Source of the DNA: Candidatus Fermentithermobacillaceae bacterium UBA3951
GTDB lineage: Bacteria > Bacillota > Sulfobacillia > Fermentithermobacillales > Fermentithermobacillaceae
DNA: 64,000 bases
NCBI GenBank assembly: GCA_002385465.1
Contig: DGDN01000043.1
Coordinates: forward strand, 2,927 to 66,926
Direction of reading: 5' to 3'
Positions 1,979 through 5,925 of this stretch are shown here, piece by piece. The translations under genes and the position numbers were made by a program. How positions within the stretch are numbered: position 1 is the first letter of the stretch; every line of letters starts with the position of its first letter. The notes under the pieces are model-generated. The model saw only the letters and a program-made list of their open reading frames with translations, was not told where the DNA came from and searched no databases.

Positions 1979-3075
1979 ACGGCCCTTCTCTCCCTGATCA
2001 ATTTGCCTTTCAACCTATAGACGTAAGCCAGCACTTCGGCCACTGCCTTGTAAAGTTCCTCCGGAATCATCTCCCCGATGTCCGCTGCTTTGTAGAGAGC
2101 CCTGGCGAGAGGCGGATTCTCGACCACATGGACCCCTGCTTCTTCTGCAATCTGCCTGATCCTGAGCGCTATCTCGTCGACCCCCTTGGCCACCACGAGA
2201 GGTGCGGGGCTTTCGGCTGCATCGTACTTGAGGGCCACTGCGTAGTGGGTGGGGTTTACCACCACAACGTCGGCATTTGGCACCTCCTGCATCATCCGTC
2301 TCCTGGCCATCTGGCGCATCCTCGCCCTTATGGCCTGCCTGACCTCAGGCTTCACTTCGTTGTCGCGGAGCTCGTCCCGGAGCTCCTTTACGGTCATCCT
2401 GAGGCTCCTCTCGTGCTCCCACCATTGGTACAAGTAATCCAGTAGGCCTGCTGCCATGAGGAAGGCCCCGCATTTCATGATCAGTGACTCTACGGTCTTT
2501 TGGGTGATCTCAAGGGACCCGGCAAGTTCCCTTATGGAGAGGCCTGCCATCTCCGGCATGACCCCCCTAAGGGTTGTCCAGGCAAGAAGCCCTATCAGGC
2601 CTATTTTGAGGAGTGACTTAAGGCAATCCGCCAGCGCGCGTCTTGAGAAAAGCCGCGTGAAACCGCTTATGGGATTTAGCCGTTCCGGCTGAGGAGTGAG
2701 GAAAGACAACCTGAACTGTAGGCCTGTCTGGAGGATGGATACTCCCGCTCCAAAAAAGAGAGACGCGGCCATGACCGGAGCACATGCGATGGCGGCGTAC
2801 ATAAACACGCTCCGCAACACTTCCATGGCGTAGGAAACGCCGAACTCCGCCGGTACGGAGGCCGACCATATCACTGCCGAGCGCGCCATTATGAACCGCG
2901 CCACCGGTTTTAGTCCGTAGCGGAGAGCAAGGACGCCGGCAAAGAACGCGGCCGCAGAGACGAGGTCTTGGCTACGGGCAATCTGACCTTTTTCCCGCGC
3001 CATTTGCCTCCGTCTCGGCGATGCCGGTTCGGTCTTTTCCGAAGAAAAGAGCTGCAGGTTGATTATACGCGTCAT
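1975..3075 (-). CDS. flhB: Flagellar export apparatus protein FlhB
   Basis: Track ORF 1975..3285. The true start is the M at ORF residue 71 (MTRIINLQLFSSEKTEPASPRRRQMAREKGQIARSQDL), which matches the FlhB N-terminus and gives a 4-nt overlap with the fliR stop. The C-terminal region carries NPTHYAVAL, the autocleavage NPTH motif. Confidence 0.9.
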   Translation of the reverse strand: MTRIINLQLFSSEKTEPASPRRRQMAREKGQIARSQDLVSAAAFFAGVLALRYGLKPVARFIMARSAVIWSASVPAEFGVSYAMEVLRSVFMYAAIACAPVMAASLFFGAGVSILQTGLQFRLSFLTPQPERLNPISGFTRLFSRRALADCLKSLLKIGLIGLLAWTTLRGVMPEMAGLSIRELAGSLEITQKTVESLIMKCGAFLMAAGLLDYLYQWWEHERSLRMTVKELRDELRDNEVKPEVRQAIRARMRQMARRRMMQEVPNADVVVVNPTHYAVALKYDAAESPAPLVVAKGVDEIALRIRQIAEEAGVHVVENPPLARALYKAADIGEMIPEELYKAVAEVLAYVYRLKGKLIRERRAV

Positions 3076-3886: not shown

Positions 3887-4153
3887 TCACATAAGTCCCG
3901 GCAAGTTCTCGATGATCCTCTGGGCGAAGCCGGCTACAGTCCTGAGCATCCAGCCACCGAACAAGAGGAGGCTTACAACCACGGCCAGAACTTTGGGGAC
4001 AAAGGCCAAGGTCTGGTCGTGTATTTGCGTGGTCGCCTGGAAGACCGAGATGAGGAACCCCACGGCCATTGATATCCCAAGGCAGGGAGCCGCCACGATG
4101 AGTACTGTGGTGAGAGCTTCTCTTCCTATTGATATGGCTTGGTCGAAAGTCAT
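3887..4153 (-). CDS. fliQ: Flagellar export apparatus protein FliQ
   Basis: 88-aa two-TM protein from MTFDQAISIGREALTTVLIVAAPCLG...FQATTQIHDQTLAFVPKV. The start is taken at the M at ORF residue 10, which leaves a 20-nt gap after the fliP stop. Confidence 0.85.
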   Translation of the reverse strand: MTFDQAISIGREALTTVLIVAAPCLGISMAVGFLISVFQATTQIHDQTLAFVPKVLAVVVSLLLFGGWMLRTVAGFAQRIIENLPGLM

Positions 4154-4172: not shown

Positions 4173-5360
4173 TCATGCAAATCCGCCTATAAGCGACTTG
4201 GTTACCAGGCTCCACCCGTCTACGAGCACGAACAAGAGGAGCTTGAAAGGCAAGGATATGAGTACCGGCGGGAGCATAAGCATTCCCATGGACATGAGGG
4301 TTGACGCCACCACCATGTCGATCACCAAGAACGGCAAGTACAAGAGGAATCCCATTTCGAAAGCCGTCCTGAGCTCGGAGATCACGAAAGCGGGGACCAC
4401 CTGAAAAAGGGACATGTCTTCCGGGCTCTCAGGGGCCTCTTCCCGTCCCAAGGTAGCGAAAAGCGCCAGATCTTTTTCGCGGGTCTCTCTCAACATGAAC
4501 TCCTTCATAGGCTGAGAGGCAAGGGCAAAGGCCTCCTGCCCGTTTATCTCTCCCGCTATGTAGGGCTGCAGCGAAACCCTGTACACTTCCCCCCACGTGG
4601 GAGTCATGACAAAGAACGTGAGGATGAGGGCAAGGCCTATAAGGACCTGATTTGGAGGTGTTTGCTGGGTACCCAGCCCCGACCGCAAGAACGAGAAGAC
4701 GACGACCATCCTTGTGAAAGACGTGGTGAGCATCACGATCGCCGGAGCTAGAGACAGGACCGTGAGTAGCCCCAGTATCCCCAGGGACGTCCCCAGCCCG
4801 CCCTGAGGTGTCTCTCCACCTATGGTGATATCGATTTCGGGGATGGGGAGAGCCTGAGGAGCAGCACTCAAGGTCGCGGCGGGGCCAAGGCACGCGCCGA
4901 AGACGAGAAGGGATGTGACAAACAAGGTGAACTTCTTCCGGGAGAGTTTCTTCCCGATCCTCTTTAGTTCGTCCGCGAGTAACGCCGGGAATGCGGGAGG
5001 TTCGCTCGGAGACTCACCGGGGCGAAGGCCGGAACCCGGACTGTCGGGTAGCGGGTTTGGATCTGCCGTACTCTCATGTGGCTCGATCTCGCGGATGAGG
5101 TTTACGCTGTGATCGGTGACACCGATAAGGAACCTGCTTTCTCCCGAGCGGATGAGGCAAACCATACGGCTGCCCCCGAGCCCTAGGGACTCGACGATTT
5201 CAAGGGTCTTGCCCGATTTCCCGGCAAGGCGAGTCTTTCCATACCTCTTTACCAAAAGGAGACACCCGAATACAAGGAGCCCCATGAATCCCAGGATCTT
5301 GAGAAGTTCAGCGAAGAGCGAATTCGAATGCATGTTGTCGCCGGAGAAACCGGCGGGCAC
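4173..5360 (-). CDS. fliOP: FliO(FliZ)-FliP in one continuous 395-aa frame (fusion, or fliP initiated internally)
   Basis: The N-terminal 130 aa are FliO/FliZ-like (single TM LLKILGFMGLLVFGCLLLV, then GKTLEIVESLGLGGSRMVCLIRSGESRFLIGVTDHSV). A Pro/Ser linker follows, then a FliP signal peptide (KKFTLFVTSLLVFGACLGPAATLSAAPQA) and the FliP core (QQTPPNQVLIGLALILTFFVMTPTW...). There is no stop codon and no ATG/GTG with a Shine-Dalgarno before the FliP signal peptide. Confidence 0.8.
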   Translation of the reverse strand: MPAGFSGDNMHSNSLFAELLKILGFMGLLVFGCLLLVKRYGKTRLAGKSGKTLEIVESLGLGGSRMVCLIRSGESRFLIGVTDHSVNLIREIEPHESTADPNPLPDSPGSGLRPGESPSEPPAFPALLADELKRIGKKLSRKKFTLFVTSLLVFGACLGPAATLSAAPQALPIPEIDITIGGETPQGGLGTSLGILGLLTVLSLAPAIVMLTTSFTRMVVVFSFLRSGLGTQQTPPNQVLIGLALILTFFVMTPTWGEVYRVSLQPYIAGEINGQEAFALASQPMKEFMLRETREKDLALFATLGREEAPESPEDMSLFQVVPAFVISELRTAFEMGFLLYLPFLVIDMVVASTLMSMGMLMLPPVLISLPFKLLLFVLVDGWSLVTKSLIGGFA

Positions 5361-5413
5361 CCCCCTTATCTCTACCCCGCTTGGTTTCCGAGCCGTCTCG
5401 CGCGGTTTTTTCT

Positions 5414-5925
5414 CTAGATTTCTTTCCGAGCGCTTCTATCTATGGCCCTCTTCGAGACTATGTCGGTTATCCTCACTCCGAAGTTCTCGTCGACCACTAC
5501 GACTTCTCCGTGGGCGAAGAGTTTTCCGTTGACGAGAACGTCTACGTTCTCACCCGCAGACTTGTCGAGTTCCACCACAGACCCTACGGTCAGGTTAAGT
5601 AGGTCCCTCACTCGACACCGGGCCCGTCCGAGCTCAACACTAACGGCCAGAGGGACATCAAGGAGCGCATCCATTCCCGCGACCGGTGTTTCCGTCTCCG
5701 CGTCCTTAGAGAGGTCTTCGAAGACGACCGGCTGCACCGACGGCTCGGGCTTCTCCACCGGTTCCTCTGCCGCCTTGCTCTCTGTCTTCGGTGCGGCGCT
5801 AATCTCCTTGTCTTCTTTGGCTTCGGCCGCGGAGGGCTTTTCCTTTGGCTTTGCCGGTGCCTCCTCTTTGGATGCCTCAAGGAGCAAAGCGTCGATTTGG
5901 TCTTGGCTCATCTGCTCATTCATGG
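5414..5925 (-). CDS. fliN: Flagellar motor switch protein FliN (short FliN-type, no CheC domain)
   Basis: C-terminal SpoA/FliN domain (VELGRARCRVRDLLNLTVGSVVELDKSAGENVDVLVNGKLFAHGEVVVVDENFGVRI). The start is taken at MNEQMSQDQIDALL, adjacent to the fliM stop. Confidence 0.85.

Follow-up and report, generated by a model that had tools for sequence, protein, structure and literature searches.

The 64,000-nucleotide stretch of contig DGDN01000043.1 analyzed here (the window), from Candidatus Fermentithermobacillaceae bacterium UBA3951, carries the flagellar export genes fliO and fliP as one continuous minus-strand gene. Comparison with relatives indicates that this fliO-fliP gene is a genuine, evolutionarily fixed gene fusion. 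Its product is probably a single polypeptide in which the former FliP signal peptide lies between the two domains and would be cleaved to release FliP.

The region 4173..5360 (positions are those of the window) harbors a single open reading frame (ORF) in the ORF listing, running over 395 residues from a GTG without internal stop, with the FliO part directly upstream of the FliP part and in the same frame. The Pfam FliO profile (PF04347) matches residues 36-107 with 46.1 bits (gathering score 22), and the FliP profile (PF00813) matches residues 198-390 with 272 bits, over profile positions 1-191 of 191. The NCBIfam fliP equivalog TIGR01103 is matched over its entire length as well (positions 1-197 of 197; 276 bits, cutoff 217), while the FliO equivalog TIGR03500 reaches 53.5 bits, slightly below its cutoff of 55.25. 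The gate motif of Salmonella FliP, (M/T)TSF, is found as LTTSFTR, 46 residues downstream of a region displaying signal-peptide-like n-, h- and c-regions. A preliminary description, made from the sequence alone, had read FliO and FliP as one continuous frame and had proposed hidden Markov models for locating the domain boundaries. The profile matches place both domains in that frame, and the retention of the arrangement in relatives bears the reading out.

Seventeen sequences form the clade comparison: the window and the species-representative genomes L001-L015 and L017, labeled mostly as Candidatus Fermentithermobacillaceae, class Ca. Fermentithermobacillia, within the Bacillota. Both domains are in frame in each of these relatives, with 51-87% identity to the window. 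Beyond them, both Pfam domains occur in 79 of the 120 best protein clusters, in proteins of 327-401 residues. In a neighbor-joining tree of the FliP domain, the fused sequences and the window form a single clade; this simple tree carries no support values, and the number of fusion events read from it is approximate. Within the clade the junction has eight distinct lengths, every one in frame, and the fusion appears to be under selection. Three more Bacillota metagenome-assembled genomes (MAGs; L024, L035, and L071) possess a fused gene and yet have split sequences as their neighbors in the tree, suggesting that they were fused independently; their junctions also retain the A-x-A motif discussed below.

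An exhaustive search with the FliO part alone returned stand-alone FliOs as the norm, and one of the 150 best representatives (P0010) is a protein of fused length with FliO at its N-terminus; clustering at 50% merges the fused clade into this one representative, so that the count gives no estimate of fusion frequency. Other candidates from these searches were set aside. P0197 and P0227 are FliOs with N-terminal extensions and not FliP fusions. P0124, a 4998-residue protein with 12 "FliO-like" stretches, is a surface protein with SdrD_B, DUF11, and CarboxypepD_reg repeats according to Pfam, and its match is spurious and repeat-driven. The long upstream frames of L023, L076, and L077 translate into Arg/Gly/Pro-rich read-through of GC-rich DNA and show no FliO features.

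Could the single frame be an artefact of assembly or sequencing, through a lost stop or a compensated frameshift? MAGs do carry indel errors, and such errors are seen in this very gene in L016/L085 and in L017. This explanation is nonetheless hardly credible. The open frame is not due to chance, since it is kept in 17 species-level genomes, which many independent studies contributed, and since protein search also found it in an independent ENA assembly, in a protein of 395 residues with 99% identity. Moreover, the amino-acid motifs of the junction are conserved in frame, and the errors seen in relatives disrupt the fusion rather than create one.

Some relatives are recorded as if FliP were a separate protein. 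Five unfused FliPs of ~250 residues (P0074-P0078; 72-74% identity) were considered as re-splits of the fusion and rejected, their DNA showing either in-frame fusions or indel-ridden assemblies. The loci of P0076 and P0078, namely L081 (2126-3256) and L082-L084 (about 1100-2250), contain the complete fused frame; FliP has been called there from an internal Met, a non-conserved residue with weak Shine-Dalgarno (SD) pairing, and the FliO part (~125 codons) is left without a gene call. In other public records, the whole fusion is named "FliP" only. Surveys may therefore count this lineage as lacking FliO, as its genes are recorded only as "FliP" or their FliO part is unannotated.

L016, which is nested in the clade, shows a frame change where its linker contains an A5 run. 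The same organism was assembled a second time (L085); the two versions share hundreds of identical bases, yet three one-base indels and one substitution separate them over ~60 nucleotides of the FliO-FliP linker, and the frame is broken at a different place in each (3265-3360 in L016, 895-985 in L085). Joining the upstream part of L016 to the downstream part of L085 yields a single frame again. These differences are probably an assembly error, real heterogeneity in a linker under low constraint being a lesser option. L017, a MAG from the study that also produced L016, displays two frame breaks (3940-3990) within the most conserved FliP segment (VVPAF-AISELKTAFEMGF); this is probably an assembly indel error as well, and less likely a pseudogene. 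Judged on their DNA, no clade member is convincingly split. The comparison of fused and split arrangements called for in the preliminary description thus finds the fusion in all clade members, the apparent splits being explained by the way genes were annotated or by assembly indels. Separately annotated relatives were also checked for a conserved near-cognate start with an SD; what the P0076 and P0078 loci hold is a fused frame and an internal Met that is not conserved, which does not refute the fusion.

The frame of the 395-residue product initially described stands, while its length probably does not. The Met at codon 10 (ATG 5333) is aligned in 17 of 17 clade members, and the GTG at 5360 is limited to the nearest relatives. 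Translation therefore probably starts at ATG 5333, giving a product of 386 rather than 395 residues. In the initiation region, a G-rich SD lies ~22 nucleotides upstream of this ATG, and a GC hairpin separates the two. The arrangement occurs in 17 of 17 clade members (the window, L001-L015, and L017), with a loop of N4-5, despite diverging flanks, and the predicted folding energy of the -36..-1 segment ranges from -7.8 to -14.6 kcal/mol among them. A covariation test among clade members gave no signal, the stem being invariant G/C and RNAalifold not recovering it. The hairpin could shorten the effective distance between the SD and the start, or it could be a palindromic protein-binding site.

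Separate production of FliP by internal initiation, at TTG146 or at a non-canonical codon, the full-length product being minor or serving as FliO only, is improbable. Several points speak for it. The public annotations of P0076 and P0078 start FliP at an internal Met. In-frame Mets before the hydrophobic core are present in several clade members (L005, L006, L007, L010-L013, and L016), three of them with an SD pairing of -5.8 to -7.3 kcal/mol, and TTG serves as a start for FliM and FlgD in the same operon. In the window, however, the junction has no ATG or GTG, and the anti-SD pairing of TTG146 (-3.5 kcal/mol) equals the mean of all 2657 ATG/GTG/TTG codons on the strand, 44% of which pair as well or better; homology-supported starts of the same operon (n = 11) range from -6.3 to -12.0 kcal/mol. 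Initiation at this TTG would also delete the entire basic n-region. Among clade members, the anti-SD pairing of junction Mets spans -0.4 to -7.3, and the Met occupies the same position only in L005, L006, L007, L013, and L016, the remaining members having F, L, P, T, or S there. No junction start appears to be selected, because the position and identity of this Met vary even between the sister genomes L007 and L008, which carry ATG and CTT, respectively. Furthermore, without a stop codon, ribosomes coming from FliO would proceed into FliP, so that the fused product would be made regardless. A further candidate, the ATC at codon 135, was rejected; it follows AAAGAGG at zero spacing with a pairing of only -3.2 kcal/mol.

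Separate initiation of FliP thus appears unsupported in the window. The preliminary description had rightly noted that the junction offers no ATG or GTG with a usable SD and that its sole TTG would remove the basic n-region, although this TTG is codon 146 (4925-4923) and not L148. Its alternative of a non-canonical start finds no support, TTG146 pairing at background level and no junction start being conserved.

The topology of the fused protein can be parsed from its hydrophobic segments and charges (Table 1). There are six K/R in the 15 residues following the first transmembrane segment (TM1) and seven in the 15 residues preceding the second hydrophobic segment, while the 15 residues after the predicted cleavage site hold no K/R and two acidic residues. 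This pattern obeys the positive-inside rule for a predicted arrangement N-out / TM1 / cytoplasm / TM2 / out, which the secondary structure of an AlphaFold2 (AF2) model fits. A membrane span is required at the junction, since the C-terminal domain of FliO is cytoplasmic (PMC2947984) and the N-terminus of mature FliP is periplasmic.

The basic tail preceding this span has the motif F-x-x-L-L-x-x-E-L-K-R-I-G-K-K-L-S-R-K-K, of which the clade alignment keeps F-x-x-L...K-R. In split relatives, the residues preceding the stop of stand-alone FliOs make up a comparable F..L..K/R tail, and the fliO stop typically abuts the fliP start or overlaps it by a few bases. These two features place the fusion point at the very end of FliO, where a small indel would suffice. 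The tail AFPALLADELKRIGKKLSRKK is the counterpart of the C-terminal tail of stand-alone FliO and also serves as the basic n-region of the signal peptide.

Table 1. Features of the fliO-fliP gene and of its predicted product in the window (M10 numbering, from the Met at codon 10; pLDDT, predicted local distance difference test).
Feature	Position	Strand	Description
Maximal FliO-FliP ORF	4173..5360	minus	395 codons from GTG, plus stop at 4173-4175; both domains in frame
Probable true CDS	4173..5333	minus	386 residues from the clade-conserved ATG; motif M-[NDS]-S-[YN]-S-L
Translation-initiation region	5340..5368	minus	G-rich SD AAGGGGGG (~5368-5360), GC hairpin, 6 nt, ATG
GC hairpin before ATG	GCCGG 5354-5350, loop 5349-5345, CCGGC 5344-5340	minus	GCCGG-N5-CCGGC in the window
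FliO transmembrane helix	5250..5318	minus	residues 15-37 (GTG numbering); AF2 helix 4-32 (M10 numbering)
FliO cytoplasmic β-sheet domain	5085..5207	minus	residues 52-92; PF04347; four AF2 strands, 44-83 (M10 numbering)
Pro/Ser/Glu-rich linker, predicted disordered	4995..5084	minus	residues 93-122; pLDDT <50; length and sequence vary among relatives
Conserved amphipathic/basic tail AFPALLADELKRIGKKLSRKK	4932..4994	minus	residues 123-143; AF2 helix 115-129 (M10 numbering)
TTG codon 146	4923..4925	minus	sole in-frame ATG/GTG/TTG between the FliO domain and the hydrophobic core; not a credible start
Internal signal-peptide core	4863..4931	minus	h-region FTLFVTSLLVFGACLG (144-159), c-region PAATLSA (160-166); AF2 helix 132-148, then disorder
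Mature FliP (predicted)	4176..4862	minus	residues 167-395: segment APQALPIPEIDITIGGETPQGG, TTSFTR motif, FliP core

The junction keeps all the hallmarks of a cleavable signal peptide, statistically in the same way as unfused FliPs. Twenty fused and 37 unfused FliPs were compared after registration on the TSFTR motif, positions -3 and -1 being scored by a rule-based heuristic of our own. Ala occupies position -1 in 19 of the 20 fused and 34 of the 37 unfused sequences, and the mean -3/-1 score is 5.78 in both sets. The hydropathy of the h-region (2.86 in fused, 2.77 in unfused FliPs) and the median distance from the cleavage site to TSFTR (44 and 43 residues, respectively) are also close. In the window, an n-region with 7 K/R precedes an h-region of 16 residues and the possible sites LSA↓AP or GPA↓AT, neither with Pro at +1, the clade-wide form being A-x-A↓A. 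The predicted signal peptidase I site is that after Ala166 (LSA↓AP), homologous to the AxA↓A of relatives, with an alternative after Ala162 (GPA↓AT).

In Salmonella, cleavage after residue 21 removes the FliP signal peptide, and the β-hairpins of the β-cap consist of residues 22-41 (PDB ID: 9K29; PMC12403130, PMC5542437). This β-cap is located at the distal tip of the FliP5Q4R1 complex, far from its membrane-embedded base (PMC12403130). The segment APQALPIPEIDITIGGETPQGG, which starts immediately behind the predicted site, is the positional counterpart of the β-cap hairpin region.

Several observations weigh against cleavage and release of FliP as described. The residue at -3 of the Ala166 site in the window is Leu, which is tolerated but suboptimal, and the heuristic scoring favored GPA↓AT, so that the exact site in the window is uncertain. 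The c-region is less canonical in L014 and L015. The AF2 model is that of a monomer, with a mean pLDDT of 63.8 (moderate confidence). In L005, L006, and L012, the moderate SD pairing of the internal Met makes a second, separately initiated FliP possible. Finally, the case for cleavage in the clade is built on motif conservation and on the Salmonella structure. The proposal that this is a true fusion with a cleaved internal signal peptide therefore fares differently in its two parts: the fusion is borne out by its clade-wide presence, its in-frame linkers, and the lack of a conserved start, and cleavage is suggested by the retained signal-peptide features.

Alternatively, the fusion may be left uncleaved, FliO staying attached via the former signal peptide as a second span and becoming a permanent, five-copy part of the export gate. 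The hydrophobic segment (a 16-residue core plus flanks) is long enough to span the membrane. In Salmonella, intermediates that contain FliP are purified together with FliO (PMC5542435), and the fusion in Buchnera has been invoked in support of a FliO-FliP interaction (PMC2947984). We nevertheless regard this alternative as unlikely. A mere membrane anchor would not need the A-x-A and the register, both conserved as in unfused FliPs. Only ~8 residues separate the span from the β-cap-equivalent segment, and such a tether looks incompatible with a position at the distal tip. Ten added helices and five cytoplasmic domains would presumably have to fit among FliPQR, FlhB, FlhA, and the MS ring. In addition, the FliO of Salmonella, which shields FliP from Lon-dependent degradation and promotes formation of the FliP-FliR complex, is missing from the basal body once this is complete (PMC5542435).

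Cleavage of a single polypeptide made from a real fusion is the probable course, and it would proceed as follows. One cistron would be translated from ATG 5333 into a 386-residue polypeptide. The FliO helix would be inserted with its N-terminus outside the cell, the FliO β-domain, the disordered linker, and the basic tail remaining in the cytoplasm. The former FliP signal peptide would then be inserted as a second span, from inside to outside, and signal peptidase I would cut on the outer face at the conserved A-x-A, which in the window means after Ala166. Mature FliP would thereby have a free N-terminus, able to form the β-cap and to join FliP5Q4R1. FliO itself would end up as a two-span protein with the former signal peptide as its second, C-terminal helix, adjacent to FliP and in an expected FliO:FliP stoichiometry of 1:1. 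It would then act as the FliP chaperone, as in Salmonella, and the weak overlapping fliP ribosome-binding site that limits FliP in split operons (B. subtilis, for example) would not be needed. By analogy with these systems, the benefit of the fusion may be that chaperone and client are synthesized in equal amounts and right next to each other.

The fused gene belongs to a minus-strand flagellar export operon of the order fliM, fliN, fused gene, fliQ, fliR, flhB, with motA/motB, flgE, flgD, and fliL upstream. It sits between fliN and fliQ, and the ORFs of FliM, FliN, FliQ, FliR, and FlhB flank it on the same strand. No second copy of fliO or fliP is found within the 64-kb window. As regards the starts of its neighbors, the longest-ORF starts of fliN (6046) and flhB (3285) on the minus strand are probably too far upstream. 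Candidate Met starts are located, on the same strand, at 5923 for fliN (5920-5923; SD -12.0) and at 3075 for flhB (3072-3075; SD -6.8). With these starts, fliN overlaps the fliM stop and flhB overlaps the fliR stop, by 4 nucleotides each, overlaps typical of translational coupling, unlike the outright fusion of fliO and fliP.

This type of fusion is already known, and the present one is a well-conserved, independently arisen example in a poorly studied class of anaerobic Bacillota. A fliO-fliP fusion has been reported in Buchnera sp. APS (Shigenobu et al. 2000, as cited by Barker et al. 2010, PMC2947984). Compared by description, FliO and FliP form a single gene there as well, which has been taken as a sign of their interaction (PMC2947984). 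Buchnera, however, is an insect-endosymbiont gammaproteobacterium with a reduced genome, whereas the bacteria considered here are free-living anaerobic Bacillota, and the two fusions are of independent origin. Here, moreover, a whole class-level clade has the fusion fixed, and further cases occur in other Bacillota. No study on the processing of a FliO-FliP fusion, in Buchnera or in Fermentithermobacillia, was found in the literature searched.

The split systems of Salmonella and B. subtilis share the gene order fliN-fliO-fliP-fliQ-fliR-flhB and a FliO composed of a transmembrane helix, a cytoplasmic β-domain, and a basic tail. They possess a fliO stop and a fliP start of its own, whereas here the FliO tail continues into the signal peptide. 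Salmonella FliP resembles the present one in having a signal peptide of the cleavable type. In B. subtilis, FliP has been reported to lack a signal sequence; fliP overlaps fliO and has a weak ribosome-binding site, and the amount of FliP is what limits activation of the export apparatus (PMC4526659).

Adjacent export-gate genes are also fused in the case of FliR and FlhB, with other partners, both of which stay in the final complex and need no cleavage. FliR-FlhB fusions are found naturally in Clostridium. One has been engineered in Salmonella, where it was tolerated and used to argue for a 1:1 association (Van Arnam et al. 2004, as cited in PMC5542437). The FliO-FliP fusion differs from it in that one of the partners acts only transiently, as a chaperone, and the junction contains an internal signal peptide. 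Bacterial polyproteins split at an internal signal peptide include the cytochrome b-c1 precursor FbcH of Bradyrhizobium japonicum. FbcH likewise consists of a membrane protein followed by a signal-peptide-like span, and a signal peptidase cut on the outer face gives two proteins in a 1:1 ratio, cleavage having reportedly been shown experimentally; the proteins are unrelated, and cleavage is predicted here. A literature search for bacterial precedents of an internal signal peptide gave only viral polyproteins and unrelated Bradyrhizobium papers. The main text of a 2025 PNAS survey of FliO describes LysM and AMIN additions and does not mention FliP fusions, and a full-text literature search found no other discussion of FliO-FliP fusions.

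The role of FliO is debated, from a transient chaperone outside the final machine, as put forward by Fabiani et al. 2017, to a core component, as presented in the 2025 PNAS survey. A class-wide fusion indicates that a flagellum can work when FliO and FliP are obligatorily produced 1:1, co-translationally, and side by side, a mode of production that is apparently favored. It also supports a direct, stoichiometric FliO-FliP interaction at the outset of export-gate assembly, and offers a natural system in which to test whether a bacterial membrane polyprotein is cleaved at an internal signal peptide. More speculatively, the chaperone may have been built into its client, either with FliO as a permanent, five-copy covalent component of the gate, or with a cleaved FliO that keeps the signal peptide as a functional second helix docked on FliP during FliPQR assembly. 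We hold this idea with little confidence. Either option, if true, would be a mode of FliO action unseen in the Salmonella model, and the clade would then be a natural tethered-chaperone system in which to study how assembly of the type III export gate begins.

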